From Gemmatimonadota bacterium (lineage in GTDB: Bacteria > Gemmatimonadota > Gemmatimonadetes > Gemmatimonadales > GWC2-71-9): a stretch of 64,000 bases of DNA. Below are positions 3,001 through 56,332 of this stretch, one piece after another. Under the pieces are notes generated by a model. That model made no database searches, was not told the DNA's origin, and saw only the letters and a program-made list of their open reading frames with translations. Each line of letters starts with the position of its first letter. Position 1 is the first letter of the stretch. The translations under genes and the position numbers were made by a program. The stretch covers positions 8,312 to 72,311 of the forward strand of contig JBDHAB010000014.1 of NCBI GenBank assembly GCA_039588295.1, given 5' to 3'.

Positions 3001-6000
3001 GACGATCGGCAGATTACCCGTGGTGTTACCCGCCACCAGGATCGTATCGAGCGGAGCTCCACCGAAGCCAACCGCGTTCACCCACTGAAGGGCTCCGTTG
3101 AGCATCAGGACTTCGCCGGGCGCAGGCGCAGCGATGGTCACATCCGTCAGGTCATTGAGCGCCGTGGCCCCACCACCGGTGGTGATGTTGTTGTCCCCGT
3201 CGGAGTTCGTGTAGATCAGTTGGCCGCTTGGGCCCGTGTTATCGACCCACAGGGTCCCCTGGCTGGCATTGGGAATGACCTCCGGAGGAATGATGGCCTG
3301 TCCCTCCAAAAGGAGGGCGGTCGGATCGATCGCACCCGTGACCGTCAACTTGCCGTTGACGATGACCGCACCGTTGCCGAGACCGCCGGTGCCCGGCGTG
3401 AGGCTGATGTCGCCTCCCAACGCAGCAGCGTCAGAGGTGTCGCCCGCCGCCACCGTGATGTTCGAGCCAGCGCCGCTTGTCGAGTCCCCAACGGAAACGA
3501 TGATTGTGCCGCCCGTACCGTTACCCGCCGTACCGGTCGCGATCCCGAGGAACCCCGTGTTACCGGCAATGGCATCTCCGGTTCGGATGTTGAGGAACCC
3601 CGAATCACCGGCATTTATCCCGCCGTCTCCGGTCGAGAGTTCTACCCTCCCAGAGTTTCCGTCGAGATTCACGTCGAATGTCTCGACGATGATGTCGCCC
3701 GTATCTCCCGTAGCCCCAGAGGCTTCACCAGAGAAGATCAGGACATCACCACCGGTCACGCCAGCAAGCGACGTACTGCCGCCCTTCATGACGATCGTGC
3801 CCGTGGTCGTAGCCGGGTTCGGAACAGTGGTGCCCGGAGCGATCAGGACGCTGCCTTGGGTGCCGCTGACCGCAAGAACACCAGTGGTGATGAGAACGTC
3901 ACCGGTGGTTCCGGTTTCGGCGTTTCCGCTGAGCAAACTGAGGTCACCGGTGTCGCCACTACCCGCTGTGAAGCCGGTGCCGACGATGGTTGTCCCGGTA
4001 TCGCCAGTAGAGGGGCCATCAAACTGCCCACCGCTCAACATCTGGAGGGTGTTCGTGTTGCCGGAACCCCCGACGAAGATACGGCCAGCACTCCCGATCG
4101 CCATGAAGCCGGTGTCGTTGCCGGCGAGGCTCGTGAACCCACTGAATACGTTGACGTTGGCGCCGTCACCACCGTTGCCGTCAAGTTCTCCAGCGATGCC
4201 GAAACTGTTACGGAAAACGATGTTGTTGAGGCCCGACTCGTTGCCGTTGATCAGGACTTCGGCGAGAGTCAGCCCACCGGTAGCCACTCCAGCGCCGTCC
4301 GCAACGGTGCCTTTTTGGTTGACGACCGTGGAGTGCCCGACAAATACATTTCCGCCACCGGGGTTGATGCGCCGGCTCCCGATGATCATGCCCATATTGA
4401 CGAGGGCGCCAGGAACGGAGGTGCTGAGGGTGTTCGACGAAAGGAGATTGAGGCTTTCGTCGAAAATGAAAAACTGGATGGTCGGGTACTGCGACGTGTC
4501 GATGATGAAGTGCCAAACATCGACCGACGAAGTGGACGCAATCGTCACCCCTGTCGAAGAGGGGCCGTCCGTTGGGCCACCAGGGCCACGCGCAATAACA
4601 CGCCAGTTCGGATTCGTTCCGGGATCGGCCACGAACCCGATGTATTCCTCCGCACCCGCCGGGTCCGCGTTGTTAACCGCGAGTTGGGAGAACCCCGTTG
4701 CGGTCGAGAATCCCATGAAGATTCGCGTGTCCGAAGTGTCCGTGGTGAACAGGGAAAAATGAGCCGCGAACTTGTACGACGCGCGATGCGGGAACAGTCC
4801 AGCACCGGCATCCATGTCGAACGCCGCAAAATCGTTGGGCGCGGGGAGCGAGAACGAGTTGACGCTTCCGGACTGAAACGTATGCGCGCGACTGATCGTG
4901 CCGGCGGTACCGCCGTCATCGAACTGGATCTGATTGAGGATGCCCGAGGAATCAAACTCGAACTGAGCGCCGCCACCGACGTTCTTGGCAGCCGGGGACA
5001 AGTAGCCCCACTGCATCTGATTGAAGCTCTCGATGAAGTCTCCGGCGAACGCGAGTTGGAGCCACCCCGTCGCGGACCCGTTCTTGTTCACCCAGAGCTC
5101 ACCAATCCCCGTGTCGAGACGTTGGTAAACATCTCCTTCGTCGCCGGGAGTACCTCCCCCGGCGTTGGGGTCTCCGGTGCCGCGCTTGATGTTGTCGGAT
5201 TGGAAAATCCCGTCAGCTTGAACGATCCCATCGTCCGCGCCTCCCCCTCCGCTTCCTGGACGCAAACGAATGACTCCGCCCTCACCACCACCCGGCCCTC
5301 CCGAGCCAGCTTGTAATACGATCCATCCTCCGTCTACAGCATCAGCCGAGTTACCTCCCCACAGGTTGACGTTGCCGCCTTGTCCGGCGTTGAAGACGTT
5401 CGAGATCGCAGGAGGAGTGGTCGCGCTACCACCGACGATGTTGATGCTGGCGCCGTCCCCTGTGCTGAGGCTATCGCCTCCCCACAGACCAATACGTCCG
5501 CCACGATCGGTGCCCGTAGGTCCGGCACCACCGTAGAGGTTGACCTCTCCACCTTGAGCACCACCACCGCTTCGAAGGGTGATCTCTCCGCCGTTCCCAC
5601 CAACGAGACTGGTGCCCGTTTGAACGAGAACCCCTCCGCTGCTTCCACTGCCTCCTGGAGTCGGAGTCGTGAACTGGAGATTCCCGGTATCGCCCCCGAC
5701 AGTCGTACCGCTCGTGAGCGTGATGCGACCGCCGTCACCGGTCACGCCGGTAGCCGGACCACCAACGATGTTGACCGTGGCACCGGCCCCACCAACCGAG
5801 TTCTCCGCACCAATGATGGAGTCACCGCTGGTGATGACGATGTTCTGGCCGCCGGTGAAATCACCGATCGCCAAGGTCTCGGAGAGGTTCTCGCCCCCGA
5901 GGTCGTCGGAGATCTGCACCCAGGTCGTGTCGTCAGCCTGGATCTGCCACAGGCTCGGGGTGCCCGTGCTGGCGTAAAACGAACCGGGACCCACACCGGA

Positions 6001-6303
6001 GATCAGGCCATTCGGATCAGCCTCGACCCCGACGTGAAACCCCGCGACCGTCACCGGATTGGTGGGATCCACGCCCAGCGCCATCACGAAAATGGGCTGT
6101 CCGATGTCGTCGATCCGGTTGGCGAAGATCAGATTCGAGACGGTCTGATCGATCTCACTTTTGCCGTTCGTAACGAGTAGGTCGCACGGCAACGGAGGCG
6201 GCAGTGTTTGGTCCCCCGCGGGTACGTCATACCCACGGACCCAGGTTCCCTGGAAAATGTCGGCGTCTACGCCTGGGCGTCTATTGACGGGAGGATTGGC
6301 CAT
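1..6303 (-). CDS. Giant Gly-rich tail fibre/adhesin-like virion protein, partial (>2100 aa, runs off the left edge)
   Basis: ATG at 6303 (MANPPVNRRPGVDADIFQG). The same frame reads as protein at both ends and the track lists no stop-terminated ORF in it. Fibre-type motifs LNDLTDVTIAAPAPGEVLMLNGALQWVN and WPEADGVAGQVLTTNGAGQLSF. Confidence 0.8.
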   Translation of the reverse strand, partial: MANPPVNRRPGVDADIFQGTWVRGYDVPAGDQTLPPPLPCDLLVTNGKSEIDQTVSNLIFANRIDDIGQPIFVMALGVDPTNPVTVAGFHVGVEADPNGLISGVGPGSFYASTGTPSLWQIQADDTTWVQISDDLGGENLSETLAIGDFTGGQNIVITSGDSIIGAENSVGGAGATVNIVGGPATGVTGDGGRITLTSGTTVGGDTGNLQFTTPTPGGSGSSGGVLVQTGTSLVGGNGGEITLRSGGGAQGGEVNLYGGAGPTGTDRGGRIGLWGGDSLSTGDGASINIVGGSATTPPAISNVFNAGQGGNVNLWGGNSADAVDGGWIVLQAGSGGPGGGEGGVIRLRPGSGGGGADDGIVQADGIFQSDNIKRGTGDPNAGGGTPGDEGDVYQRLDTGIGELWVNKNGSATGWLQLAFAGDFIESFNQMQWGYLSPAAKNVGGGAQFEFDSSGILNQIQFDDGGTAGTISRAHTFQSGSVNSFSLPAPNDFAAFDMDAGAGLFPHRASYKFAAHFSLFTTDTSDTRIFMGFSTATGFSQLAVNNADPAGAEEYIGFVADPGTNPNWRVIARGPGGPTDGPSSTGVTIASTSSVDVWHFIIDTSQYPTIQFFIFDESLNLLSSNTLSTSVPGALVNMGMIIGSRRINPGGGNVFVGHSTVVNQKGTVADGAGVATGGLTLAEVLINGNESGLNNIVFRNSFGIAGELDGNGGDGANVNVFSGFTSLAGNDTGFMAIGSAGRIFVGGSGNTNTLQMLSGGQFDGPSTGDTGTTIVGTGFTAGSGDTGDLSLLSGNAETGTTGDVLITTGVLAVSGTQGSVLIAPGTTVPNPATTTGTIVMKGGSTSLAGVTGGDVLIFSGEASGATGDTGDIIVETFDVNLDGNSGRVELSTGDGGINAGDSGFLNIRTGDAIAGNTGFLGIATGTAGNGTGGTIIVSVGDSTSGAGSNITVAAGDTSDAAALGGDISLTPGTGGLGNGAVIVNGKLTVTGAIDPTALLLEGQAIIPPEVIPNASQGTLWVDNTGPSGQLIYTNSDGDNNITTGGGATALNDLTDVTIAAPAPGEVLMLNGALQWVNAVGFGGAPLDTILVAGNTTGNLPIVVEDSLGSRITSDGNLTLDPAVAGGNAVIIDGLLWPEADGVAGQVLTTNGAGQLSFQPGGGGGGGTFAEAFAQMQFGQWVAIDTGAVPIGGGLPNITGFFGTVPPLEPSPGPGTTVSTLNGVQASYVTLGVADSDAGLQITGSTVADDSKYFTSIKFVTGVGGAYNMFAGLTTASGGTPFADQLAFPGTPNEDYVGVQLVDDQGQINLHFVTDNASGAPLTVDTGILPSGSTAFWIDIDSTVVGAITLSLYDVDRNLLAATTFNAQLPSPATLLSHMAAVRSRDAVARFMSIWSVTCITRADLLGAIGGGGGNQDLASVLGFGRETGGLTIQGDDSGAGSGVDLSLAGGTSTGGGGAGGDILFTGGAPDPAGIGGAGNLVMATGGGAGTGDGGDLSITLGPGGPGGGSGGSILTALGDGAGTGSGGIWSLTAGDSGPGIGSFAGAVNFTTGSGGVGSGAAGGRFNVITGAGDGTGNGGGVLYTTGAGGAGGGDGGSFIVSLGIGNGGGVDGKLLVVGDVDISGKLTVGGMIDPPGLLMSSSGVVPFTPAGSEGGIWVNNSGELIFTNTGGDLNLSTAIGGGLGFLDALLISGYGFMGPGNPIGGPESYGVYGGSVNFDVDPPGAITFGTDPDGPLLVLSLGAVAGAQAYESTADLTISRDQQFKALFKFQSSSPAHTDERIFIGFTDDASLTTPATMLASPAPVGGLQYMGLYQSLGGVTFEFIAQGSGGAMVNVFALPNDGLVHYLQIDASASSGDVTFTVFDSDGVTISNGGLATHTEPDVGFVLPDLSLATRPFVGLASAVSTTPRTLDFYFSSIITRADVVDSVVGLGGGGGGISPLEDVLGAGDITNGNDIEFTDGDKIRGEDLGTGTGGSVDVVAGDETVGGVGTAGGDVGIAPGSVTAGVGGRAGTTYVGASVSVGSGIDGSAGAGVIDGGDGADLLLFSGSGGLNLTGDGGAAGTFNFLGGNGGAADEGASPNNAGNGTDIIFFGGSGGDGNH

Positions 6304-6969: not shown

Positions 6970-9900
6970 CTACGCCGTGGTGTTCGTCGCGTTCTGGGTG
7001 TAAGAGATGGTGACGACATCACCGGCCGAGAACGTGGGGCCAGCAGCCGATACATCGATCGTATTGCCAACGCCACTCGACACATCGCCGCCCGCGTTCA
7101 TCAACAGCAGCCCATTCAGGTAAATCTGGGCATCGAAGTTGAAGTCGAAATCGGTTGTCGGCTTCACCGCGATCACACCTCCGGTGAAATCCGACGCAGA
7201 AAGGTTGCCGCTCGGCCCCACCCCAGCACCCGTGATGGTGTCCTGGAAGAAGTTTTTCGTAACCGCGGTCCCAGAGGTAGTGATCGGTTCCCAAGTTGAG
7301 CCATCGTCGCCACCACCGGAAGCATCGATCTGCACGTACAGAGTGTTTCCGGTCGCACCGGCCCCTGTGTTGAGGCAGAAAAGCGATCCACCCGGAGCGG
7401 TGTGGGTCGGAATCGTATCGCCCGCGTAAACCTTGGAGTTACCGCTGCCACCGCCCGTAGCGGCCAGAGCGATGAAGGCTTCGTCGTTGTCCTGGACACC
7501 CAGGATCTGAAACTCACCATGAGCTCCCGTCGTGAAGCCATCACCCGGAGTCATCCGGATATCAGGGCCATCGGCAGTGCCCGCCGTCGAATCTCCTGTC
7601 GTGACCGCATAGATATTGCCCGAAGCGTCGGCCGCATTGGCCGTGGTGAAAGCCATCGTGGTGCCGGCGTCCACGGACATCGCCGTCGTCGCTTCGATGG
7701 AGATGGTCGTCACCGCGAGCATGTCGATGGCGGCCCCCGCGTCGATGTCCATGCTGTCCACCGAGTTGAGGATCACGTTGCCGGTCGTGAGAGTGGCGAA
7801 CGTATTGTTGCCGCTCGTGGCCGTGAAGTTACAGGCGCCGACACCGTCGGCAGTCAAGGACCCTGTGGAGTTCAGGTCCAACCCAAGAGTGCCTCCGTCC
7901 ACGGTGGTGAGGGACGTCGTGTTGGTCGATCCGATGGTGGTGGTCTTGATGCCCGCACCGGTATTGAAGTTGGCGGCCTGGGTGAACGCACCGGTACCGA
8001 GATTGAGAGTGGCGCTATTCTCTTCACCGATGTTGATCGTGGCACTCCCACCACCGACCCCGGACCTCAAAGCCTGGACCGAGACGATCGAGCTGCCCGC
8101 CGTCCCGTTAGAGTTAATAGCCTCCAACCGGGTGGTGGCGAGATCCCCGTTGGTCGTTACGTCCGTTTTGAGGGTGAGGGTGGACGAAGCCGCCCCGGTG
8201 ATCGTGAAGTTCGATGCCGTGGCCGTCGAATCGAGAGACACAGGCCCCGTGGCGTCGGCCAAGATGCCGGCCGTACCACCCGCGATAGTCACCCCATTGG
8301 CGAGATTGGCCTCACCGATGTTGACAATGTCTGCACCAACGGCCGGCGCGAAACGAAGGAGCCGGTGGCCGCCCGTCGCACTGCTCCATTCCAGGAACTC
8401 GGCATCGTTGATGAACCATTCGAAGCTGTCACCCGACACCGAACCCTGTGTGGCCGAGGAACCACCCGTCGTGGCGACCACCGAAACGAGATCACCACCC
8501 GCGGTGACGATGTTCACGTAAGTGGCCAGACCAATGTCGTTGAACGCCCGTGCGACCAAAACCTCGCCAGTCGTGTCCACGCGCTCGGCCGTGATGGTCG
8601 CGCGACGCACGGTAGCCGTGAGCCCCGTTTGTGACGTGACCTGATTGTTGAAAAACTCGAAACCGGCCCCGGGGGCCGCGTCCAAAGTCAGGGCCGTGCC
8701 TGCGATGCCAGCGACAACAAACAACCCACGGTTCTCCTCAAAGGTCGATCCGCCAGGATCAGTCACGAGGAGGACCTCACCGACCGAGTACAGGCCGCCC
8801 GTCGTCAGGACAGCGGTGGGATTGGTGGCTGCTCCGTTATTCGTGAACGAAGTGATCTCGTCCACCGTGTCTGACGACACGACACTGATCGTGTAGTTGT
8901 TCGTCGCGACTCCCGCGTCGTTGCCGGTTCCCGAGAAGAGGGCAACGTTTCCCTCGTTCTGGTTCTCCAGGTAGAAGGAAGAAACCTCGTGGCGGGCCAC
9001 GCCAGGTGCAACAGTGTCATTACGGTCGAGTTGCGTTGCCTGTGCGAGGAACTTGTTCGGGAAATTGTAAGTCCAACCTTTCTCTGCGGCGGCGGCAGTA
9101 GAGGATCCTGCCGTCCAGTTCAAGGTCGTGTCAGCGTCCGCGTTACCGACGTTGAGCGTGTTGTCCACGCCAACACCCGTGAGGATGTTGGCCGTGTTGG
9201 CACCGACGGTGCCCGTAGCGACGTTGACGGTACCGAGTTCCTGCGTCTGAATGTTGACGACACCAGGGTCCCCGATGAGCGCGGAGGTAGCGTCGATGTT
9301 TACCGCCGGGGTGCCCCCCGCGGCATTACTAGCCGTCGCGACGAGATCGAGATTGGCGACACCAGCAGCCCCGGTGTTGTCGACGGTGAAGGTCAGTACC
9401 GCAGTACCACCAGCGGTGGTTTGCGTGATGCTCGAATCCGTGATCGAATCGATCGTGAAGTTACCACCCGAATTGAGGTCGAGATCCCCCGACCCCGCGT
9501 TGATCGTGGTGTCCGAGCTCGTGTTTTCCGATCCGAGAGTGGTGCTCTTGACCCCCGCACCCGTGTTGAACATGGCCGTCTGGGTGAAGGGACCCGTTCC
9601 GACATTGACTGCGGCACCCTGAGTGGTCGCCATGTTGATGGTGATGGCACCGCCACCAGCACCCGCACGCTCGGCCTCTAGGTTGAGCGTCGCGGTGCCG
9701 GCCGTGACGTTGGTGGACTCAGCCAGGACAGTCACCGTTCCGGTGTTCCCGTTGCCATCGGCCGAACCGGTAACCGTCACCGTCGCGTCACCCGTAGAGG
9801 TGTTCTCGGCCTCCACGAGCATCGTAGAGGTGGTCGCGGTGCCGCTAGTGGCTTTGACGGTCCCGGTTTCGAAACCATCGGTCTCGAAAGCACTAGCCGC

Positions 9901-12900
9901 CCCGCTACCCGTGAAGGTCACGTCAGCGCCAGAATCCGGGATGACGGTGAAACCACCGTCCGCGCCGACCGTGAGGTGATTGAGGATGCCGTCCGTGCAG
10001 CGGAAAGCGTGCGAGCTCGACGTATTCAAGATGGCGACCCCTGGGCCGTCCCCGAGAAGATTGTTCACCTGGAAGGCGGTGCCCGACTCGGTCGAGTTGC
10101 CGTTGACCTCGACCAGAGAACCACTGCCGTTCGGCGTGCCCGTGATCGAGAGGGCCGTGGTCGGTGTCGGCGTCGTGTGGGTCGGCACCGTGATGGTAGC
10201 CATGTCGGCGAGGACAGAGTCGATGGTGCCCGCGATGGCGAAGGGACCATCCGCAGCCGTCGTGGTAAACGACGGAGTGTTGGGCGAACTCGTGTTGTAG
10301 ACCTCTTGGAAGGTCGAGTTTCCACTCGCCACGGTGGTGTAGGTCACAACACCGCCCGTAACACCCTCAGCAAATTCGAAGACTCCCGCGTTCTGACGCC
10401 AGATCGAGAGCTCGACCTCCCGGACAGCCGCGCTGGCGTCCGCGCCACCCACGACGTTCGAGGCCAGCCACGCCTCGGTGACGGGGGTGCCACCCACCCC
10501 GTAGAGGGTGAGCACGTCCGCGGCGATTCCGGCGATGCGGAAGATCTTGCTGTTGTTCAGGTTGGCAGACGAGAAAACGGCGATGAAGTTACCGACGGTG
10601 AAGGTGGCGCCTTCGCCCACCCCGACCGTGATGGAAGGCGCGTTCGTGGCCGGCCCGATGCCAGCAGTGAACGAGACCGAGGTGCCGGTCCCGGCCCCGG
10701 TGATGCTGACGATGTGGACGTCGCCGCTCGTGGTGTCAACGGCGGAGTCGTAGCCGTCCGAACCCGCGCCCCAACTGACGTAGGCGTCACCGAACGTGCT
10801 GTTGTTGTAGGCCATGAAGCCAGCGGTGGCCTCGTAGGTGCCGACGGCGGTGTCCGACGTCGGGTCGTTGTTGGACATCTGGATGATCCAACCGTGTTGG
10901 CCATTCACCGCAACAGCGCCCGGGGAGGTGTCCGTGATCTCAGTCCCGGTCGTGGCATTGCCGCGGGCGATCGTGTTGGCGAAACCTCCGGTCCCGGTAT
11001 TGATATCGGTCGCGGTGGTGGTACCGACGTTCACGCTGCCCGAGGGGCCTCCGGCGATATTGGTAGCCGACGTGGTCGTAACCGAACCGAGGTTCGCTGT
11101 GGTAACCGGAGCTCCGTTACCGAGGTTGAGCTCCATAGAAACAGCCAACGCCGCCGTCCCGACGTTGACCACTCCAATCCCCGACATGCTCCCACTCGTG
11201 TGGAGGTTGGCCGTAGCGGTGCCCGTGGCGTTGACGACGACAGGGTCGAAGACCAGATTGGCCTCAGTAGCCGCAGAACCCCCCGACCCGGTGACCGTGA
11301 TCTCTCCCAGGGCCACGGCCGTCGCCGAATCCGACGTATTGGTGATGAGGATCCTTGTGTTGACCTCCCCCGAGCTCTCCGCTCCCGAGGTGGTGAGCGT
11401 CATGTTTCCAGTACCGGCGTTGAGGGCCGTGGACGACGGGCCGGTAATGGAGCCCATCGTGACGATGTTGGTGTTCACTCCCGTGCTGAAGTTACTCGTG
11501 TTGGTCGTGCTGCCGGTGTTGGTGTTAACGTTGACGACGCTGGCACCCGCGATACCGTTGTCGGCCTGGATGTTGACGTTCCCGGTGCCGGAGGTCGACG
11601 TCACGTTGGAGTAGACATCGAGGTTCGACGTCGTCACGGCGGTGGCGCCAGTGGCCTCCGCCGTGAACATCGCGCTGGCGACGGCCGCCGCCGTGTTGTC
11701 CGCATTGACGACCGCGATGTCGTTGGCGATGGTGCCCCCCGTGCTGCCCGAAGAGGTGACGGTGAAACCGCCGGTGACCGTCGTGAAATCGATGGCTCCC
11801 GCGCCGAGGGCGTCGACCGTGAAAGAGGACCCTGACGTCATGTCGAAGTCGATGCCACCGGCCGCCGTCCAGACGGCGATGTTCGTGCTCCCGTCCCGGA
11901 ACTCGGCGATGTTGCCGGTGCCTGTCGAATCAACGATCAGACCGATCCCATCGCCCGAGGTACCGATAACCGCGGACGCGGCACCCTCATCGGACGGGTT
12001 CGTGATCGTGAAAAGGTCCCCGCTGTTCAGGTCGTCGCCGGCCAGGTTCAACAACGGCTGGGCGGTGGCGGCCGTCATCACACCGTTTTCGAGCCCCATG
12101 ACCGTAACGGTCCCGTCGATCTCGCCTGCGATGTTGAAAGAGGAATCCGCCGCCGTCACGACGAACATCGGGTCATCGCCGGTGCTGGCCGAATAGGTTG
12201 CCGCGAAGTCCGATCCTGCGGCGGTCGCAAGAGGAACGAACGAGGTTGCGGAATCGCTGTCGCCGTCCGCTACCTCCCAAGTACCGGAACCGGTGCATCG
12301 CATGACGCAAAGGTCGGCCTTGAGAAGGGTTCCGGACGCGGTCGCCTCTGCCTGGATAGCCGTCTTGAACCATGGGTACGTCGGGGTCGTGTCGATGGTG
12401 ATGAGGCTATCGGCAATTGCCCCGACCACATACAGGCCGTTGATGCACTCGAAGTTGCTGCCGACGGCAATGATGTAGTCGCCAACCGACAGAACCGGAG
12501 CACCCGCATCCACCGTGAAAGTCGTGGCCGTAGTTGCCGAGTAAGTGTCACCAGGCGTGTACGTGGTGGCCGCAGAAACAATCACCGTACCACCTGAGAG
12601 ACCCGTGGTGTTGGCCTGAGCGTTCAGCGTGATGAAGTTCTGACCGTTACCACCCGCACCGAAGTAGTGGTGCAGGTTGGAGTCCCGGATGTGATCCGAA
12701 GTGTCCGACCCGACGGAGGACAGGATACAAGCCCCCGAGTCGAAAAAGATCTCTTCCCCGGACGTCAGAATAACGTCGCGGGTCGCCGTCGCCGTAACGT
12801 CCTGGCTGGCCGTAAGGGCCACGTCAGCACCGGTCGTGGCCGTGTCCCCGGTGGAGAGGATGATGCCGCCATCCACCGTCGAACCATCACCGCCAGAGAC

Positions 12901-14850
12901 GGCGAAGGTGCCTCCGAGGCCACCCGTCGATGTTCCCATCGAGACACCGATTCCGCCGCCCGTACCCGTACCAACGACATCACCAAGGTTGATGTTGAAA
13001 TCACCAGCGTTGAAGTTGCCCGTGACATCACCCGTCGCCACCGTCACATCGGCGGTTGCGGCAGACAGAGCCGCCGTCGCCAACGAGATGGTGCCACTAC
13101 CAGAGGAGATGCCGACCGAGGTCGTACCGAGAAGGTTGCCGATGGCGACGGTGCGGCCCGTGGTCGTCCCCGCGCCAAGGGACACGTTCCCATCGTCCGC
13201 ATCCGAGCCGATCAGGATGTTGCCTCCACTGGAGTCGACGGTCAGGGCATCCGTGGCCTGGAAATCCGCCGTTCCGGCCGAGATGAGATTCAGAGCTCCA
13301 CTCGTCACCGTCTGGAAGGTGGCGGCTGCACCGGTAGCCTGAACCGTCAACGCAGCGGCACGGTTGATGATGCCCGCGGTCTCCATGACCTCCAGGCCCG
13401 TGGCCGCAGAACCGACCGTGATGCCATTCAGGAAATCAGTGTCGACCTGATCGAAATCAGCGACATCGACATCCACCGAGTAATGGATTGTCGTCGTACC
13501 ACCACCGGAACCTTCGGTGACGGTGAAAAGATCCGCACTCAGCACATCCCCGAGAATCCACTCAAAGCCAGTACCCAGATCGATTGTGTTGCTGCTCAAC
13601 GTGGTGAACGCAACGCCAGCCTGGTTCGCGTAAACCGATTCGAGGGTGTCCACCACGGCGGCGCCGTCGGTGAAGCCATCCGACAGGAACCCTTCCTCGG
13701 GGCAGTCCTCGAACGCATCACGACGCACGTATGCGAAGTCGGCCGTCACCGTGGCAGCGAGATCGCCATCAGTGAGTTCCACGAGATCATCGTTGGTGCC
13801 ATTGCGAACCACCAAACTCATCTGGAGTTGGTCAGGGTCGATACCCGTGATCGTCGATCCATCGACGGCGCTCTGACACTGCATCAGACCAAAGACCTGG
13901 TCACCGTTGATATCCGTCAACAGTTCGCCATCGGCCGAATTGACCAGGACCGCCAGGCTCTTGGGCTGGAGAGGATTGGGGCCCGCAACCTCTTCAAGAC
14001 CGCTGGATCCGAAAGTTCCCGCCGTGGCGCACACGAGACCGAGAGTGGTCACGGCACCGATAGCAGCGGTTGTGGCGGTGGGAAGCTGGTCCGGAGACAG
14101 CACCAATGCGCCAACCCCTCCTCCGAGAGTGCTGCCGCCGCCTGCCAACGTACCGGCACCCCACGAGAGAGTGACGGCTATCTCGGTACTGGCGATCGAG
14201 TTACCGCCAGCTCCTTGAGTTTTTGCCGTACCGACGAGCGTCGTCGCGGTGATGGCCGACGAATAGACGGTCGGGTGAATGGTCGTCGCGAGCGCGTAGT
14301 CGGTGCCCGGAGTACCCGTAAGGTTGATCGCTCCGGCAAGGTTGGAAAGACTGAGCGCAGCGGATCCACCGATCTGCACGTTGCCGTCCACGTTTGTCAG
14401 CGTGGTCTGGAACGTGTAAGTCTTGACGTCGATCGTGACCGTATCGCCGTTGGAAACGTTGACTCCGGTCGAAGTCAGCGTGCCTGTCGCGGCACTCGCG
14501 GTCGGGATGTCGACCCCGACCCGACTGACGCGCTTGAGGATGCGCTTGCGCTCCAGGTCATGGAGATCGTCGTTGAGAGACTGGGAACCACGGATCGCTC
14601 CTCCCTCGAAAGTGACGGGAGCCGACAACGCTTGGTACCAATCGTTGCCCGCCTTCGTACCGTTGATGAGCATGTTGAGCTGACTGATCACCGCCTGGAA
14701 GTTGGCGGCGAGCGAATCGCCCGTCGTCTGCATCGCCCCAATAGAGCTGACAACCTGATCGTCGTAGTTGGTTGCGCCGCCGTCACCGAGAGCACCGCCG
14801 AGGTCAACGATTTGAATGAATGGATCGAGATGGGTCTTGCCGATAGCCAT
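6970..14850 (-). CDS. Giant 2626-aa Gly/Thr/Ala-rich tail fibre/adhesin-like protein
   Basis: Long open frame with beta-rich repeats; recurring TLESVY/DFAATY/TFQEVY blocks; C-terminal IYLNGLLL...DVVTISY module. Confidence 0.8.
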   Translation of the reverse strand: MAIGKTHLDPFIQIVDLGGALGDGGATNYDDQVVSSIGAMQTTGDSLAANFQAVISQLNMLINGTKAGNDWYQALSAPVTFEGGAIRGSQSLNDDLHDLERKRILKRVSRVGVDIPTASAATGTLTSTGVNVSNGDTVTIDVKTYTFQTTLTNVDGNVQIGGSAALSLSNLAGAINLTGTPGTDYALATTIHPTVYSSAITATTLVGTAKTQGAGGNSIASTEIAVTLSWGAGTLAGGGSTLGGGVGALVLSPDQLPTATTAAIGAVTTLGLVCATAGTFGSSGLEEVAGPNPLQPKSLAVLVNSADGELLTDINGDQVFGLMQCQSAVDGSTITGIDPDQLQMSLVVRNGTNDDLVELTDGDLAATVTADFAYVRRDAFEDCPEEGFLSDGFTDGAAVVDTLESVYANQAGVAFTTLSSNTIDLGTGFEWILGDVLSADLFTVTEGSGGGTTTIHYSVDVDVADFDQVDTDFLNGITVGSAATGLEVMETAGIINRAAALTVQATGAAATFQTVTSGALNLISAGTADFQATDALTVDSSGGNILIGSDADDGNVSLGAGTTTGRTVAIGNLLGTTSVGISSGSGTISLATAALSAATADVTVATGDVTGNFNAGDFNINLGDVVGTGTGGGIGVSMGTSTGGLGGTFAVSGGDGSTVDGGIILSTGDTATTGADVALTASQDVTATATRDVILTSGEEIFFDSGACILSSVGSDTSDHIRDSNLHHYFGAGGNGQNFITLNAQANTTGLSGGTVIVSAATTYTPGDTYSATTATTFTVDAGAPVLSVGDYIIAVGSNFECINGLYVVGAIADSLITIDTTPTYPWFKTAIQAEATASGTLLKADLCVMRCTGSGTWEVADGDSDSATSFVPLATAAGSDFAATYSASTGDDPMFVVTAADSSFNIAGEIDGTVTVMGLENGVMTAATAQPLLNLAGDDLNSGDLFTITNPSDEGAASAVIGTSGDGIGLIVDSTGTGNIAEFRDGSTNIAVWTAAGGIDFDMTSGSSFTVDALGAGAIDFTTVTGGFTVTSSGSTGGTIANDIAVVNADNTAAAVASAMFTAEATGATAVTTSNLDVYSNVTSTSGTGNVNIQADNGIAGASVVNVNTNTGSTTNTSNFSTGVNTNIVTMGSITGPSSTALNAGTGNMTLTTSGAESSGEVNTRILITNTSDSATAVALGEITVTGSGGSAATEANLVFDPVVVNATGTATANLHTSGSMSGIGVVNVGTAALAVSMELNLGNGAPVTTANLGSVTTTSATNIAGGPSGSVNVGTTTATDINTGTGGFANTIARGNATTGTEITDTSPGAVAVNGQHGWIIQMSNNDPTSDTAVGTYEATAGFMAYNNSTFGDAYVSWGAGSDGYDSAVDTTSGDVHIVSITGAGTGTSVSFTAGIGPATNAPSITVGVGEGATFTVGNFIAVFSSANLNNSKIFRIAGIAADVLTLYGVGGTPVTEAWLASNVVGGADASAAVREVELSIWRQNAGVFEFAEGVTGGVVTYTTVASGNSTFQEVYNTSSPNTPSFTTTAADGPFAIAGTIDSVLADMATITVPTHTTPTPTTALSITGTPNGSGSLVEVNGNSTESGTAFQVNNLLGDGPGVAILNTSSSHAFRCTDGILNHLTVGADGGFTVIPDSGADVTFTGSGAASAFETDGFETGTVKATSGTATTSTMLVEAENTSTGDATVTVTGSADGNGNTGTVTVLAESTNVTAGTATLNLEAERAGAGGGAITINMATTQGAAVNVGTGPFTQTAMFNTGAGVKSTTLGSENTSSDTTINAGSGDLDLNSGGNFTIDSITDSSITQTTAGGTAVLTFTVDNTGAAGVANLDLVATASNAAGGTPAVNIDATSALIGDPGVVNIQTQELGTVNVATGTVGANTANILTGVGVDNTLNVGNADADTTLNWTAGSSTAAAAEKGWTYNFPNKFLAQATQLDRNDTVAPGVARHEVSSFYLENQNEGNVALFSGTGNDAGVATNNYTISVVSSDTVDEITSFTNNGAATNPTAVLTTGGLYSVGEVLLVTDPGGSTFEENRGLFVVAGIAGTALTLDAAPGAGFEFFNNQVTSQTGLTATVRRATITAERVDTTGEVLVARAFNDIGLATYVNIVTAGGDLVSVVATTGGSSATQGSVSGDSFEWFINDAEFLEWSSATGGHRLLRFAPAVGADIVNIGEANLANGVTIAGGTAGILADATGPVSLDSTATASNFTITGAASSTLTLKTDVTTNGDLATTRLEAINSNGTAGSSIVSVQALRSGVGGGSATINIGEENSATLNLGTGAFTQAANFNTGAGIKTTTIGSTNTTSLTTVDGGTLGLDLNSTGSLTADGVGACNFTATSGNNTFATLTTGNVILNSVDSMDIDAGAAIDMLAVTTISIEATTAMSVDAGTTMAFTTANAADASGNIYAVTTGDSTAGTADGPDIRMTPGDGFTTGAHGEFQILGVQDNDEAFIALAATGGGSGNSKVYAGDTIPTHTAPGGSLFCLNTGAGATGNTLYVQIDASGGGDDGSTWEPITTSGTAVTKNFFQDTITGAGVGPSGNLSASDFTGGVIAVKPTTDFDFNFDAQIYLNGLLLMNAGGDVSSGVGNTIDVSAAGPTFSAGDVVTISYTQNATNTTA

Positions 14851-45064: not shown

Positions 45065-46957
45065 TCATGCCCATGCGGGCTTCTGGAGAAGCTCCGTTTG
45101 AAGGATTTGGTCCACGAGCGTCACACGAGGGCGCGCGCGACCAGCCACCGCTTCCCCAACCGGGGTTGCAGCGATCAGAGCCCGAATCGTCCGAGTGATC
45201 GCGTAGGGATCCTCGAAGGTACGGTCATCGAGCATGAGGCACGGGATACCGAGCCGGTTGGCCGTCTCTCGCACCGCGGTGCTGTTGTCCGCGCCATAGT
45301 GACGCGCACGCCAACCCGCGGCTCCCCCGAACGCAACCGTCTTGAGGAACCCGAAAGCGACCGGGCGCAGGCCCGAAGCCTCGACGGCCGTGTGGAAGGG
45401 ACGTGCCTCCTCATCACCAATGAAGATGATCAGAGAGTCCTCGTCATCCGCGGGCTTGTACTTCTGGAGCACACGGATCCCGGCACCGTAGTCAGTACCA
45501 CCGCCAGCGCCGATGCCACGGAAAGCCGCCTCCACACCCTTCGTCGAAGCGTGCTTGATGGTGACCTCCCGACCGTTCGTGTTGAACACGGCGACCTTCA
45601 CCTGGTCGAGCGGGAACGACTGGAGGAACTTGGCGATCAGAGGCTTTGCAGCATCCAGAGCACCCTGCATCGACCCCGAGATATCCACGAGGAACTTGAT
45701 CGACAAGCCACGGATGGTCTCCTCGACCACCTTCTGAGCCACCTTGTCGGCACCCTCCTCCATCGTCTCCTGGAGCTCCTTGGACCGAACGTTGCGGGCG
45801 ATGTTAGCCGCACGCATGTCGTCCGCCTTGGCGAGAGCCGCAGCGTGGCGCTCCTTGATTTCCTGGATCTTGAACAGGCCCAGGTCCTCCAGGGTCGGAG
45901 TCATGATGATGATGTCCTTGTCCGAAAGGGACCCGGCCTCGATGGCCGCAACCATCACTGCACGAGTGACTCCCACCTTCGGAGGAAGGAGACCCACGAT
46001 CCGCTTCCAGTTCGGCTTGGTCTTCTCGATGAGCTGGCAGATAGCCGCCTCGTTGAGATCGTCCCACGACTCGGCAGCCTTGACCGCCTTACCGATCGCC
46101 ATGCCACGCCGGCCGTCGTCGGCCTGCTTCTGCTTCCAGCGCAGAGCCTCGAAGAACTTGTCCGAGGTCGGCTTGTAGCCGATACGCCGAGCCATGGTCA
46201 TGACCGTGGTACGGAACCCGGCCTTGACGAGACCCTCCAGCATCTTGGGGTTCTCCTCACGGAACCGAAGCCACTTCTCGATGGCCTTGGGCCATCGACC
46301 GAGGAACGGACGCTTGGCCGACTTGCCGAAGCCGAGCTCGCGGTTGATCTCCGCGATCTCGGGCAGCATGAGCACGTCGTAGATCCGAAGCAGGAGCTTC
46401 GGGTTCAGATCCTTGCCCTTCTCCTGGAGAAGAAGCATGGCCTCACCGACGTTCCGGTAGTCGTCATCGTCGAACAGGTGCTCACCGCCGTCCATGACGG
46501 GGTCCCCCTTCCGAGACTGAACCAGAAGGAACGCAGCGAGCACGACCTTGAGGTCACGGTGCTCCTGACGGAAGGCGAACGAAGCCCACTTCGCAGCGAA
46601 CTCGTTGTCCATCTTCCAGACCTCAGCGACCTGCTTGTAGAACCACACCGCGACCTCGGGGAACAGACCGCTCTTGCGGTACAGCCCCACCTCGTTACGG
46701 CCGTTCCGAACGGTGTTGTCGCCGTTCATCGTGCCGATCTCGGTACGAACGTTCTTCTTCCCCGCCTTGCTGAGACGGAACACCTTCTTGACGCCGTCCG
46801 CCTCCTTGTGCGTGACGGGATCCCACCGCACGCCAATAGTGGCACGCGCGTCGGGAACCACAACGCCAGGGCGGTTGTGAACCATGTGATCTGAGTACGC
46901 CAGGAGAGACTGGATGATGGTCTCAGCGGGCCCGAGGTTTTCCTTGTTGTTCTCCAT
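45065..46957 (-). CDS. Ro60/TROVE-like helical protein with C-terminal vWA domain
   Basis: MIDAS DISGSM, GGGTDY, IFIGDEE after a long basic helical region; flanked by tRNA-mimic RNAs. The vWA call is solid, the TROVE call is inferred. Confidence 0.7.
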   Translation of the reverse strand: MENNKENLGPAETIIQSLLAYSDHMVHNRPGVVVPDARATIGVRWDPVTHKEADGVKKVFRLSKAGKKNVRTEIGTMNGDNTVRNGRNEVGLYRKSGLFPEVAVWFYKQVAEVWKMDNEFAAKWASFAFRQEHRDLKVVLAAFLLVQSRKGDPVMDGGEHLFDDDDYRNVGEAMLLLQEKGKDLNPKLLLRIYDVLMLPEIAEINRELGFGKSAKRPFLGRWPKAIEKWLRFREENPKMLEGLVKAGFRTTVMTMARRIGYKPTSDKFFEALRWKQKQADDGRRGMAIGKAVKAAESWDDLNEAAICQLIEKTKPNWKRIVGLLPPKVGVTRAVMVAAIEAGSLSDKDIIIMTPTLEDLGLFKIQEIKERHAAALAKADDMRAANIARNVRSKELQETMEEGADKVAQKVVEETIRGLSIKFLVDISGSMQGALDAAKPLIAKFLQSFPLDQVKVAVFNTNGREVTIKHASTKGVEAAFRGIGAGGGTDYGAGIRVLQKYKPADDEDSLIIFIGDEEARPFHTAVEASGLRPVAFGFLKTVAFGGAAGWRARHYGADNSTAVRETANRLGIPCLMLDDRTFEDPYAITRTIRALIAATPVGEAVAGRARPRVTLVDQILQTELLQKPAWA

Positions 46958-48710: not shown

Positions 48711-48841
48711 ATGTTGGCGGAGCAGACGAGAATCGAACTCGCAACCTTCGGACAGACAATCCGTTGCGCTACCAATTGCGCCACTGCTCCGTACATATCG
48801 TCGGTATCGTCCGCATCATCGCTTTCGCTGTTGGTGTTCAT
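48686..48841 (-). CDS. Asp-rich leader ORF reading through tRNA-Asp
   Basis: AAGAAAGGAGCAG SD; MNTNSESDDADDTDDMY then enters the tRNA. Confidence 0.65.
   Translation of the reverse strand: MNTNSESDDADDTDDMYGAVAQLVAQRIVCPKVASSILVCSANMGCWSSLA
48715..48790 (-). tRNA. tRNA-Asp(GTC), variant loop
   Basis: Loop TTGTCTG, G73, CCA. Confidence 0.85.
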
Positions 48842-49563: not shown

Positions 49564-49659
49564 TCAACACGGGGTCATATCGCCCATAATGGGCAATACG
49601 ACGGCCACGACGACCAGATTGGTCGTTGTCGTGGCTGTGTATGTCGTGGAGCGTTTCAT
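49564..49659 (-). CDS. thrL-like leader peptide heading the tRNA operon
   Basis: MKRSTTYTATTTTNLVVVAVVLPIMGDMTPC*; the stop lies in the 5' strand of a long hairpin. Confidence 0.7.
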   Translation of the reverse strand: MKRSTTYTATTTTNLVVVAVVLPIMGDMTPC

Positions 49660-49760: not shown

Positions 49761-50540
49761 TCACCATCGCCACACGAACTCGTCGAGCCACTGCTTGCGG
49801 CTCTCGTCGTCGAGCGCGAGGAAAGCCTGCTCCTCCGCCATCATCTCCACGTTGAAAGCGTCGGCAATCTTGCGGTGTGCGGTGCCGGGGTCGAACGCCC
49901 AAGGCTGCCAGGGGTAGTGGGCCCCCAGGCGATACTGGTTCTCCACCTCGATGATGCAGTCGATCCACGGCTTCATAGACGCCCACGTCATCGTCTCACG
50001 GTCCATCTCGCGCTTGGCGAACTCCTGCCGGTGCAGGAGCTTGAGCGGGAGCGGGCTGTGCCCGAGGTTGTCGTTGATGGAACGCCCCGCGATGACGATG
50101 TTCGACTGGCCGTTACCGAGGCCGTTGTTGCGCTCGCATACGAGATGCTCCCGAGAGCACTCCCACGGAACGTAGTAGTGAAGAGCAATCCGGAGGTCCG
50201 TAGGGACGAGGTACATCTGGACGCCCGTGTACCAACATCGCTGGGGGAGGCCCGCATCGAGGCCGAACCGCTTAGCCATCTTCACCGAGACCCAGTCCCG
50301 GTTTTTATTGCGCTTTGCGATCTCGTCGTAGTGCATCCACACGAGCTCGGGGTCGTGCTGATCGCCCCCGGTCATCACCAGGAGCTCCCGGTCAGCGTAC
50401 TTCTTGTAGCGAAGGAGGCGTCCGGTCTCGGGGTCAACACGGTTTAACGCGGCAACGCGCATCCGCTCTTGAAATTCGGGATCGTGTTTCCCTTTCCACT
50501 CGCGGAGCTTATCCCGGTTCTTTCGACCGTGACGGCCCAT
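49761..50540 (-). CDS. HNH-like protein
   Basis: CWYTG...SREHL...NIV....IN pattern. Confidence 0.55.
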   Translation of the reverse strand: MGRHGRKNRDKLREWKGKHDPEFQERMRVAALNRVDPETGRLLRYKKYADRELLVMTGGDQHDPELVWMHYDEIAKRNKNRDWVSVKMAKRFGLDAGLPQRCWYTGVQMYLVPTDLRIALHYYVPWECSREHLVCERNNGLGNGQSNIVIAGRSINDNLGHSPLPLKLLHRQEFAKREMDRETMTWASMKPWIDCIIEVENQYRLGAHYPWQPWAFDPGTAHRKIADAFNVEMMAEEQAFLALDDESRKQWLDEFVWRW

Positions 50541-51817
50541 CAGTGTCGGGGAACATTCCCGGGGTCGACAGCGATCTTCGCCACGATCCTCTTGCACTCG
50601 GAACACGAAACCGTGAGGGCTCCGTTCTCGTAGGAGCACCAGGTGGGGGCACCGATGTGGCACTGGGGATGCAGGAACATCTCGGTGCTGTGGCTCTTGT
50701 GGTCACACCCCTCCACGGCGCACGTCATACCGTCGAGCGTCACCTGGGTCAGCGGCGGGAGGTTTTTGCGGCGCCCATTCTCCGCCTCGACCACTTCCTC
50801 GTCGTCCCCCTCGTGGTCATGGCTCCCATGCTTGTGGGACAGTATCGGCCCCAACGCCGGATAGAATTTCATGGCGTCGTTGGGCATCTGCGGAAACCCA
50901 GAGACCTGACCGTCACCGATCTCCATGATGATCCACTCGCCGTCTGCCGTCTGTGCGAGGTCCATGGAGAAGAACTGGCTGTCCACCTTCGCCGCCAGCG
51001 CGCCGAGAGTTTCGAACGAAGGGAGATCCTCGATGGATTTCGGGGCCGAAAAACTGCGAGGCATACTCTCCTCCCAACCACCGTCGGGCTCCGGGACCTC
51101 GTGGGTGACACGCTCGTAGGCGTCCTCGTCCCAGTACTCGCTGATGTTGATGCTGTGTCCGTTGAGCCAGAAGATTCGGAACTCCTCCGACATCGGCATC
51201 CCCGACTGAGGATGCTTGCCGATGGATTTGAGCGGCACGAACTGACGCAGGATCACACCCCCCTGGAGATCGTCACCCTGGCGCTCCAGGAAATTCGAGA
51301 TCACGGTCTGGGCCTTCTCCATGTTGGGGATGAAGCACGCCTCCTCCCACTCGTGTTTCCTACTTTTCACGTAGTCCTTGATGAGGATGCCGTGCTCGTA
51401 ACGACCGAGCATCTCCTGGGCAGTACGGAGGATCCTCTCGACACTGATCTCATGCTTCTGGATGATTGCGGAGTCGGGCGTCGAATCGACGAGATCGAGG
51501 TACCAACCGGGGAACTCGTGAGCCTTCCGATACTGGTGGGGGGTGTTGATGAGGTCCACCAGGCAAACCTGGAGCTTCTCGTAGAGCTTCTCGTACTGAT
51601 CGGACGTGAGCATCCACCCCCGGTAGATAGCCGGTGTGGGCTCCTCGAAATCAGGGACGTACTTCACGGCCGCTGCCGCATCGTCGTCGTTGACCAGGGA
51701 CTCCCAGTGCACGAAAGCGACCTGATAGCCACACTGCTTGGCGATGTCGGCTTCGGTGGCCCAATCTGGGTCGGGTTTTTTGGGCTCGAAGGGATCGGAT
51801 GGGAACAGGACGAGCAT
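50540..51817 (-). CDS. ATP-grasp protein (R2K clade) with C-terminal Cys/His domain
   Basis: YRGWML, KDYVKSRKHEW, EFRIF, FFSMD...EIGDGQVSG. Confidence 0.8.
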   Translation of the reverse strand: MLVLFPSDPFEPKKPDPDWATEADIAKQCGYQVAFVHWESLVNDDDAAAAVKYVPDFEEPTPAIYRGWMLTSDQYEKLYEKLQVCLVDLINTPHQYRKAHEFPGWYLDLVDSTPDSAIIQKHEISVERILRTAQEMLGRYEHGILIKDYVKSRKHEWEEACFIPNMEKAQTVISNFLERQGDDLQGGVILRQFVPLKSIGKHPQSGMPMSEEFRIFWLNGHSINISEYWDEDAYERVTHEVPEPDGGWEESMPRSFSAPKSIEDLPSFETLGALAAKVDSQFFSMDLAQTADGEWIIMEIGDGQVSGFPQMPNDAMKFYPALGPILSHKHGSHDHEGDDEEVVEAENGRRKNLPPLTQVTLDGMTCAVEGCDHKSHSTEMFLHPQCHIGAPTWCSYENGALTVSCSECKRIVAKIAVDPGNVPRH

Positions 51818-51852
51818 TACCTCGATTTTACCCCTATCGGGCCCCGTATCTG

Positions 51853-52869
51853 ATGGCACACGTCCATAAAGCACTCATTGTCCTGCTGTTTGCGCCTGCG
51901 TGCGACAAACAGGCTGACGACTCCGCAGCCAAGACTGATCCCGCTGCGAAGCTGGATGTCGGCGCAAAGCTCGATGTCGGGACCCCTGGGACGCACACGG
52001 TCAACTTCGTCAACCAGTGCTCCAGTGACATCTGGGTTGGATCAGTCGGCAATACCGGGTTCAGCGGTCTCAACAACGGCGGTTGGCAGATGGGAGCCAA
52101 GGGCTCCGGCACCGACAAGACCACCCTCCAAGTTGAAGTGGGATGGAGCGGTCGTTTCTGGCCACGTACCGGGTGCACGTTCAACGATAAGGACCTCTGC
52201 GACGGGTTCACGCCCTGCTGCACGAGTGGCTCTTGTCTGACTGCGGACAACAAAACCTTCGGCCTGGAGTGCGCATATTCTGGGAAAGCCCCGGTGGGGA
52301 TCGGCGAGTTCACGTTCGACGCCGCTGGAGGTCTCGGCCCCTATGACACCTACGATGTGAGCTTCGTTGATGGATGGGGGGAGTCCCTCTCTGTCGTGGC
52401 TGTGGCCGGCACCTTCAACCCGAAACCAGACCCAGGGTTGAAAGCTCCTTGGTGCACGGTGTCAGGATGCACTTCGGCGCCGACGTGTCCGAAGGGGCTC
52501 AGTGCCGGTGGCGATAGCTGCTGGAGCCCCTGTCAGAACGCGGTCAACAGCGGGGACCCCGATAGCACGCAGGCGAAACTCTGCTGCTCGTGCTCAATGA
52601 CGAGTCCCATCACCTGCGGAGAGGCCACATGCGCTGGCGGCTACGGCTGCTCTCCCTACACGCAACCTCCGTGGCCGGCGGACCAGGTGTGCAATCCCTG
52701 GAACACGGACAAGAGCCGAGCGTGGGACACCACGAGCCAGGACTACATCGCCAACGTCCACAAAACGTGCCCCGGGGTCTACGCCTGGCAGTTCGATGAT
52801 GTCAACGGAACGTACAACTGCCGCAAGACCAACGGCCTCGTGGACTACACCGTCACCTTCTGCCCGTAG
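51853..52869 (+). CDS. Thaumatin-like (PR-5 family) lipoprotein
   Basis: Lipobox-like FAPAC; NQC...IW, WSGRFWPRTGC, EFT, YDVSFVDG, C.SPC, CPGVYAWQFDD, YTVTFCP. Confidence 0.92.
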   Translation: MAHVHKALIVLLFAPACDKQADDSAAKTDPAAKLDVGAKLDVGTPGTHTVNFVNQCSSDIWVGSVGNTGFSGLNNGGWQMGAKGSGTDKTTLQVEVGWSGRFWPRTGCTFNDKDLCDGFTPCCTSGSCLTADNKTFGLECAYSGKAPVGIGEFTFDAAGGLGPYDTYDVSFVDGWGESLSVVAVAGTFNPKPDPGLKAPWCTVSGCTSAPTCPKGLSAGGDSCWSPCQNAVNSGDPDSTQAKLCCSCSMTSPITCGEATCAGGYGCSPYTQPPWPADQVCNPWNTDKSRAWDTTSQDYIANVHKTCPGVYAWQFDDVNGTYNCRKTNGLVDYTVTFCP

Positions 52870-54878: not shown

Positions 54879-54911
54879 ATGTTCTGCATGAAACGCAAGA
54901 CCAAGCTGTAG
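54879..54911 (+). CDS. Lys-rich leader peptide MFCMKRKTKL
   Basis: AAA/AAG/AAG codons; the stop overlaps the base of hairpin 54911-54944. Confidence 0.55.
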   Translation: MFCMKRKTKL

Positions 54912-54963: not shown

Positions 54964-55041
54964 GGGCCGGTAGCTCAGTCTGCGCAGAGCGGTGGGTTCT
55001 TACCCCATAGGTCGAAGGTTCGATTCCTTCTCGGCTCACCA
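54964..55041 (+). tRNA. tRNA-Lys(CTT), variant loop
   Basis: Loop TTCTTAC, CCA. Confidence 0.85.
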
Positions 55042-55131
55042 ACGGGACCACGAACGGTACGAAAGACCGGCCGTGACCCGGGTGCCAGGACACGCCCACT
55101 GATCGTGGGACCGTCACCCTGACACCACCCT

Positions 55132-55208
55132 GGGCCCATAGCTCAACCCGGCAGAGCGGCTGACTCTTAATCAGTAGGTTGTAGGTTCGATTCCTACTGG
55201 GCTCACCA
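55132..55208 (+). tRNA. tRNA-Lys(CTT)
   Basis: Canonical, CTCTTAA, CCA. Confidence 0.92.
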
Positions 55209-55269
55209 AGAAAGATCATCATGTTTCCAGCACACGACACTCTCAAACGCACCCTCGCTCCATCCCTTT

Positions 55270-55362
55270 GGGCGAGTTAAGCGTAGCCTGGCCGAACGCA
55301 CCGGACTTTTAATCCGGAGGACGAAAGTCCCACCGGGGGTTCGAATCCCTCCTCGCTCTCCA
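55270..55362 (+). tRNA. tRNA with TTT anticodon and a long variable arm
   Basis: CCGGA-CTTTTAA-TCCGG, variable hairpin GGAC-GAAA-GTCC, CCA. Confidence 0.8.
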
Positions 55363-55363
55363 A

Positions 55364-55440
55364 GGGCCACTAGCTCAACCTGGTAGAGCAGCGGGCTTTT
55401 AATCCGCGGGTTCCGAGTTCGATTCTCGGGTGGCCCTCCA
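55364..55440 (+). tRNA. tRNA-Lys(TTT)
   Basis: Canonical, CTTTTAA, CCA. Confidence 0.92.
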
Positions 55441-55526: not shown

Positions 55527-55650
55527 CAAAACGTCATGTCACTCTCCAAACACATCTTCTTCGGTTAGCCAGGTTCCAGCTTCGTTCACAAGAGCAGGAA
55601 CCTGAAACAGCTACTTGCGTTCACGCGCAAGAGGAAGTAGACAAATCGAC

Positions 55651-56332
55651 ATGGAAACGATCCTAGTAGAGATTCGCGCTGCGGAAGGGGGCCAAGACGC
55701 CAAGTCTTTGGTCACCGAGCAGTATCGCATCTACCAGAAGTACATGACGTTGGAGCGGCTTTGACCACGAACTGGTCGAGGTGCGCCCCGGCTTTTTGCT
55801 GATGCGCGTCTCCGGCAAGAACGCCGCGATTGCGTTCTGCCACGAAGCCGGCGGCCACCGTTTCCAACGCGTACCGCCAAACGAAAAAAGAGGCCGCGTC
55901 CACACCAGCACGGTGACGGTCGCAGTACTGGATGAGCCTTCCGAGCACGAGGTCCACATCGACCCGCGTGACCTGGAGGAATCGTTCACCCGCGGGAGTG
56001 GAAAAGGGGGCCAGCATCGGAACAAGACCGATAGCTGCGTCATCCTGACCCACACGCCCTCGGGCATCATGGTTCGGGTCGACGGTGGCCGGAGCCAACA
56101 CTTCAACCGACAGACGGCGATGGGGGTTCTCCGGGCTCGTCTGAAAGCTGCCGGTACCGACCGTCGCACCAAGGACCGGAACAACAACCGGCGCCGTCAG
56201 ATTGGCGGAGGTGCTCGCGGTGACAAAGTACGGACGATCGCCATCCAGCGTGACACCGTGCACGACCACGGCACCGGCAAAACGATGAAAGCCAAGGCGT
56301 ATCTCAGGGGCAACCTGAGTCTGCTCTGGTAA
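55651..56332 (+). CDS. Short class-I peptide chain release factor with programmed +1 frameshift (about 226 aa)
   Basis: [17 protein letters not shown]...L, then CTT TGA C at 55759-55765; +1 frame has [39 protein letters not shown]. Confidence 0.88.

Follow-up and report, generated by a model that had tools for sequence, protein, structure and literature searches.

The two halves of a release factor derived from RF1 and devoid of domain 1 lie in different reading frames in the stretch of DNA analysed here (64 kb, referred to as the window). We read this gene as encoding an accessory terminator whose synthesis is held in check by termination capacity through negative feedback; the factor is predicted to act at UAA, UAG and UGA, and we put the probability of this reading at about 0.45. 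The full protein is likely made only when a ribosome pauses at the internal stop codon and slips there, so that its level would likely track termination shortage. The class-I release factor family to which the gene belongs is unannotated and is cut short by gene callers; the database record of the window gene consists of two pieces, of 176 and 183 aa. The locus comprises the following features:

54964..55440, + strand: four tRNA-Lys genes, a cluster immediately 5' of the release-factor gene
55558..55638, + strand: leader, predicted to fold so that the ribosome-binding site AGAGGAAG (55630-55637) is paired
55651..55764, + strand: zero-frame ORF (ATG at 55651, 37 codons plus TGA), which includes EIRAAEGG
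55752..55755, + strand: internal SD-like element GGAG, 3 nt upstream of the shift codon
55759..55765, + strand: +1 shift site CTT TGA C (CTT 55759-55761, TGA 55762-55764)
55763..56332, + strand: +1 frame, with the remainder of domains 2/4 plus domain 3, ending in TAA (56330-56332)
55874..55882, + strand: PPN recognition tripeptide at the position of PxT in RF1
56006..56014, + strand: GGQ catalytic motif

Within the decoding domain, the zero-frame ORF covers the first strand and the region of helix alpha5 (PCRF positions 101-131), and the product has 226 aa when the +1 step is taken at CTTT, with profile matches to positions 101-194 of the 194 in Pfam PCRF and to RF-1. A sequence-only reading of this DNA had placed the N-terminus in another frame, ending in GGAG-CGG-CTT-TGA-C; this arrangement was found at 55651-55765, with the +1 frame open as far as the TAA at 56332. 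In an alignment with L277, a relative that is naturally in frame (53% identity), the joined protein showed no gap at the junction. GGAG-N3-CTTTGAC occurs a single time within the window, and its SD-like element is one base shorter or closer than GGAGG-N3-CTT, the commonest form in the family (104 of the 195 members with a shift, GGAG-N3 being present in 39 of them). Folding of the leader was weak (z -1.72); its structure was alike in 4 close relatives (24 pairs, 5 with two-sided change, among 5 sequences only), and the leader is a possible second control layer on the release-factor gene.

Relatives numbered 416 in viral, at least 490 in metagenomic and 163 in genome-collection sequences, and the best 80 of each were kept; 27 further relatives and 6 GenBank huge phages were added, giving a total of 273 loci plus the window. 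Collapse at 90% identity resulted in 219 non-redundant members. As only the best 80 of each set were sampled, the shares given below are biased towards close relatives, and the conservation of the search patterns HRxQRxPP and GGQHRN is partly by construction. The script could not score 14 loci, 8 of which end at a contig edge; by eye, CTT-stop was present at the usual site in 5 of the unscored loci and upstream in 1. Excluded from every count were 53 short viral matches without a decoding domain (L028-L080), many of them GGQ proteins of 120-150 aa with a GGQHRNK signature, ArfB-like, and several located directly after tRNA genes.

The programmed +1 shift of prfB type proposed for the window gene was widely conserved. 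Among these best matches the shift was required in 195 of 219 members, with CTT before the gate stop in 194 of the 195, C after it in 161 and the gate at the same codon in 190. Leucine at the gate codon was encoded by CTT in 189 of 189 cases compared with 16 of 187 at a control leucine 17 codons upstream, and arginine inside the SD-like element by AGG in 112 of 116 compared with 9 of 91 at a control arginine. In 20 of the 219 members one or two in-frame stops replaced the shift (19 TGA and, in L123, 1 TAG), and 4 were scored open, including L164, in which a new CTT-TGA lies at codon 8. The gate was relocated in L020, L300 and L008, to 14, 34 and 42 codons after EGG, respectively. This rebuilding of the gate, at other sites and as in-frame stops, points to repeated selection for termination-sensitive synthesis. 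Ungated copies were L147, L197, L205 and L277, along with three more, in frame and all in one genome (L362, L365 and L366 in G152). In L313, from Nannocystis pusilla, the sequence before the site is one base shorter and the frame is broken, by sequencing error or decay. Genome-wide recoding of TGA was considered for the relatives with in-frame stops and was unsupported in a crude test, their loci having both TGA gene ends and TGG codons. Suppressor-like tRNAs were called within 5 kb of six relatives, with anticodon CTA at L139, L156, L160, L163 and L189 and TCA at L213.

The gate stop of the 195 shifted members was TGA in 137, TAG in 54 and TAA in 4. Of the CTT-TGA conservation that had been suggested as a check, the CTT was thus borne out (194/195) and the TGA was not; likewise, the claim that the protein is made only when UGA termination is weak is supported as regards weak termination but is not specific to UGA. 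Across 188 tips, TAG and TGA replaced one another at least 36 times (after shuffling, a mean of 46 and a minimum of 37), and the gate codon differed in 12 of 58 sister pairs. No decoding-loop residue appeared among the top columns covarying with the gate codon, and no association was found between PPN/PPT and the gate codon (Fisher p 0.28). The TAG share of local stops, based on crude gene calls, was just slightly raised in TAG-gated loci (0.29 vs. 0.22-0.23, and 0.37 vs. 0.33). The part of a 2025 survey cited here reports that TAG is absent from 8,164 prfB motifs, that no programmed shift was found in prfA, and that prfB uses the stop read by its own product (the direct option) in 98.6% of cases (PMC12421855); in the cited part of a 2016 review, both RF2 genes with an in-frame UGA and a UAG/RF1 counterpart are given as unknown (PMC5009743). 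The family breaks two published generalisations, namely that frameshift control belongs to RF2 only and not to RF1, and that the cassette never carries UAG.

At the protein level, domain 1 is absent, as had been noted from the sequence. The PCRF match begins at position 101, the alignment of the window protein with solved RF1 starts at residue 112 in E. coli RF1, and domain 1 gave no match at E<1e-3 on the contig (best E 0.024) or in the loci of the 218 relatives. The best family score of the window protein corresponded to prfA (TIGR00019; 199 bits for a cut-off of 423), yet it stayed under every cut-off (134/370 for prfB, 72/167 for prfH, TIGR03072, and 38/100 for ArfB). The RF1-like specificity loop was confirmed, Q185, R186, H197 and T198 of RF1 being kept as Q72, R73, H84 and T85, and so was the intact GGQ, at residues 119-121 of the window protein and in 219 of 219 members (partly search-selected). 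The PPN described in place of PxT is indeed present in the window; it is, however, a minority form of PPT (T in 144 and N in 63 of 216 members), and the two forms interchange at least 27 times in the family. Compared with RF1, the family displays T119E (219/219), E123D (217/219), proline in the middle of PxT (208/216) and T190 changed to N (63/216), whereas RF1 controls, drawn from only two bacterial groups, had T119 and E123 in 58 of 58, the middle proline in 0 of 59 and T190 in 59 of 59. Members retain G120, Q185 (216/216, partly pattern-forced), R186, P188 and mostly T198 (187/216); H197 is replaced by Q in 77 of 216, a position invariant in the RF1 controls. In RF1, the first U is contacted by G120, E123 and T190, the second base by T190 and H197, and the third by Q185 and T198, according to the cited portion of PMC3974865. 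The contact of E123 is made via the backbone (PMC3418547, in part), so that E123D may be neutral. A structure model of L277 built on a 46-row alignment (pLDDT 94) superposed on ribosome-bound RF1 with a TM score of 0.93 and an rmsd of 1.5 A, vs. 0.66 for PrfH, and a full RF1-like open fold is predicted for it. Domain 1 is described as dispensable for release and required for RF3 in the part of PMC1586002 cited here.

In an IQ-TREE phylogeny of 67 rows, the 41 family rows formed one clade (SH-aLRT 98) that grouped with RF1 (SH-aLRT 99), apart from RF2 and PrfH, and the phage group of the window joined two copies from Nannocystaceae (SH-aLRT 96). An earlier, larger FastTree phylogeny set RF1 inside the family; as both trees differ, the branching order around RF1 is not yet firm and we claim no direction of transfer. 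The gene had been taken for a phage gene, which agrees with the colinearity of the window with phage records, but the family also occurs in complete myxobacterial genomes, including those of Archangium gephyra, Minicystis rosea and Nannocystis punicea, and the genome-collection matches (best 80 of 163) are mostly myxobacterial by title. In each of five myxobacterial genomes the family gene occurs together with RF1, RF2 and an ArfB-like gene, and four of these genomes additionally have a PrfH-like gene. Distribution is sporadic: the gene was present in 6 of the 150 genomes sampled from the class that includes N. punicea and, for the phylum around A. gephyra, in 0 of 120 sampled, not all candidates being scored in either sample. 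Transfer RNA genes were found near 52 of 82 viral loci but only near 11 of 69 genome loci. No recurrent cluster of partner genes was present among 219 loci, the neighbours being unrelated ordinary genes, and no RtcB was found among 48 neighbours of the 15 genome loci scanned. Since cultured strains carry the gene (Archangium gephyra SDU49, Minicystis rosea DSM 24000 and Nannocystis exedens DSM 71), it can be tested without a phage. Myxobacterial copies often have a short ORF about 60-150 nt upstream that ends in a weak stop plus C, as seen at L247, L248, L250, L252, L262, L286 and L178, with endings such as LREH, LRER and ARG; TAGC was present in 19 of 68 upstream windows vs. a background of 0.097.

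The mechanism that we propose starts from what was observed, namely the split frames, the CTT-stop-C, the SD-like element, their conservation in the family, the loss of domain 1 and the RF1-like fold of the in-frame relative. As in prfB, SD:anti-SD pairing 3 nt upstream combined with a slow stop would very probably lead tRNA-Leu to re-pair from CUU to UUU, the alternative outcome being efficient termination and a 37-aa dead-end peptide. The full product would probably be an active, RF3-independent peptidyl-tRNA hydrolase boosting termination in infection, for phages, or in stress, for myxobacteria. In the last and weakest step, for which we see even odds, relaxed reading of the second base would turn UGA or UAG, each, into a direct feedback gate. 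We favour relaxed reading because both stops are used freely and direct feedback should use the stop that its product reads, and because the pocket for the first and second bases is where the fixed changes are concentrated. The product of prfB cannot read UAG, and TAG is absent there; the family uses TGA and TAG, so that by the same logic its product would read both. Counter to relaxed reading, the third-base contacts are of RF1 type (Q185 and T198). According to the cited part of PMC7530605, relaxed factors are toxic and misread sense codons, for example UGG, and in the model presented there a UGA gate may respond to total termination capacity without its product reading UGA; the ungated copies cut against a highly toxic product. 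A fuller version of the proposal, offered tentatively and at somewhat less than even chances, would be a natural, omnipotent and mobile RF1 derivative lacking domain 1 and RF3 dependence, borne both by huge phages and by the chromosomes of myxobacteria, with relaxed second-base reading and a self-limiting gate, safe for the carrier, that was reinvented in five or more forms (a shift at UGA, at UAG, at UAA or at several sites, and in-frame readthrough). If all three stops are read, this would answer whether factors of bacterial type occur naturally with omnipotent reading and by what means their collateral misreading is kept within bounds, which would bear on genetic-code engineering and on the takeover of host translation by large phages.

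A plain RF1 specificity, limited to UAA and UAG, is the main alternative, which we consider less likely than not; the gate would then sense total termination capacity, with a UAG gate giving direct feedback and a UGA gate acting indirectly, the factor taking UAA codons and freeing host RF2. The grouping with RF1, the best score being that for prfA, the conservation of Q185, R186, P188 and T198, the PPT of 144 out of 216 members, and a 'communicating vessels' model of indirect feedback via shared UAA (PMC7530605, in part) all agree with such a factor. Nevertheless, TAG, the direct option for such a factor, forms the gate in just 54 of the 195 shifts and in 1 of the 20 members with in-frame stops, vs. 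the 98.6% of prfB in the cited part of PMC12421855, and T190, invariant in 59 RF1 controls, underwent at least 27 T/N changes in the family. The back-up of host RF2 that had been suggested survives as one case and is too narrow in general, the gate being TAG in 54 of 195.

Rescue of stalled ribosomes had also been raised from the sequence alone. Codon-independent rescue of stalled or damaged ribosomes, as by PrfH or ArfB, with the gate keeping a hazardous hydrolase scarce as long as termination does not falter, appears improbable, having received no positive support from partner genes or from the reading head. The loss of domain 1 common to PrfH (PMC1586002, in part), the accessory, sporadic distribution (6/150 and 0/120 genomes), the frequent location beside phage tRNA arrays and an RNA ligase-like protein also encoded in the window would suit it; the codon-contact residues are, however, largely kept, neither RtcB nor another recurrent partner was found (219 loci; 48 neighbours of 15 genome loci), the prfH score was 72 bits for a cut-off of 167, and, of the five myxobacterial genomes, all have an ArfB-like gene and four a PrfH-like gene distinct from the family gene. 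It is very unlikely that the product is a competitor or decoy that binds the A site with poor release, or that function resides in the 37-aa peptide: the reading-head substitutions could weaken function, but GGQ is present in 219 of 219 members (partly search-selected), the full RF1-like open fold is predicted, in-frame members exist, and the length of the peptide is not conserved because the shift site moves. An assembly error or a decaying pseudogene can be rejected with near certainty, given the conservation of the gate and the codon-level controls: 190 independent sequences, from phages, metagenomes and complete genomes alike, share this break at one and the same codon, and synonymous sites at the gate are constrained. 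Where the sequence-only reading had allowed for in-frame homologs and a one-base error, 195 of 219 members keep the shift.

The accessory terminator that we favour was compared with known systems. Its cassette coincides with that of prfB in the SD-like element 3 nt upstream, CUU, weak stop, +4 C and +1 shift; in contrast, it is located in a gene of the RF1 clade, within the decoding domain, at codon 37 of a protein that lacks domain 1, the gate is TAG in 54 of 195, in-frame stops substitute for it in 20 members, and the window protein lacks the SPF tripeptide and falls outside the RF2 clade. RF1 (prfA) is its sister in the tree, with about 40% identity over domains 2-4 and Q185/R186/P188/T198, GGQ and fold in common, but the family has no domain 1 (226 aa in the window protein vs. 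about 355 aa in full-length RF1), carries T119E, E123D and PP[T/N], is expressed by recoding and is an extra gene beside a normal prfA. PrfH/RFH with RtcB2 is likewise a sporadic class-I factor without domain 1 that keeps GGQ (PMC1586002 and PMC9304027, in part), whereas the family lacks the SXY motif and an RtcB neighbour, forms a separate clade and coexists with PrfH-like genes; unlike ArfB (GGQ domain plus basic tail), it has a decoding domain. Judged by sequence, the family falls outside the defining features of RF1, RF2 and PrfH, and it probably resembles prfB in its control and RF1, or something broader, in its action. The closest viral parallel is the eRF1 of Mimivirus and Megavirus, a viral release factor gated by frameshift plus readthrough (PMC3521657, in part); that factor is of eukaryotic type, and the family is a bacterial RF1 derivative using either device in phages and bacteria. 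Release factors also occur in large phage genomes, and some huge-phage records known for RF1/RF2 also hold relatives of the window gene. The cited part of the huge-phage paper lists RF1 and RF2 with no mention of recoding (PMC7162821), and that of a preprint on recoded phages ties them to code change (10.1101/2021.08.26.457843); truncation and a frameshift or readthrough gate go unmentioned in those parts, and the relatives studied here look standard-code. The words 'phage', 'frameshift' and 'myxo' are absent from the main text of a release-factor survey (PMC6514570), and we found no description of this family in the openly accessible literature covered.

Regarding its origin, the window is most likely a fragment of a huge phage binned with a bacterium. 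Its contig (72 kb) has a GC content of 60.4% within a 4.5-Mb assembly, seven contigs of which, taken largest-numbered first, have 64-65%; RF1, RF2 bearing its usual frameshift, and an ArfB-like gene are all encoded by the assembly itself. The right 20 kb of the window are colinear (66-88% identity) with five records, one of them a 619-kb IMG/VR record, and the window contains 19 tRNA genes along with endolysin-, RNA-ligase-, HNH- and methylase-like genes. A scan of 30 window ORFs revealed no virion gene, and a terminase search in five related viral records gave no match. Two very long ORFs, 1-6303 (-) and 6970-14850 (-), of about 2,600 aa each, had no PHROG match. Genes near the tRNA arrays coded for a vWA-domain protein (45065-46957, -), common to the window and related phage records, an R2K ATP-grasp protein (50540-51874, -) and a thaumatin-family protein (51799-52869, +). 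A Lys-rich short ORF (54879-54911, +) precedes the four tRNA-Lys genes, a Thr-rich one (49564-49659, -) precedes tRNA-Thr, and an Asp-rich one (about 48790-48841, -) runs into tRNA-Asp; these ORFs rich in the cognate amino acid before phage tRNA clusters look like attenuation leaders.
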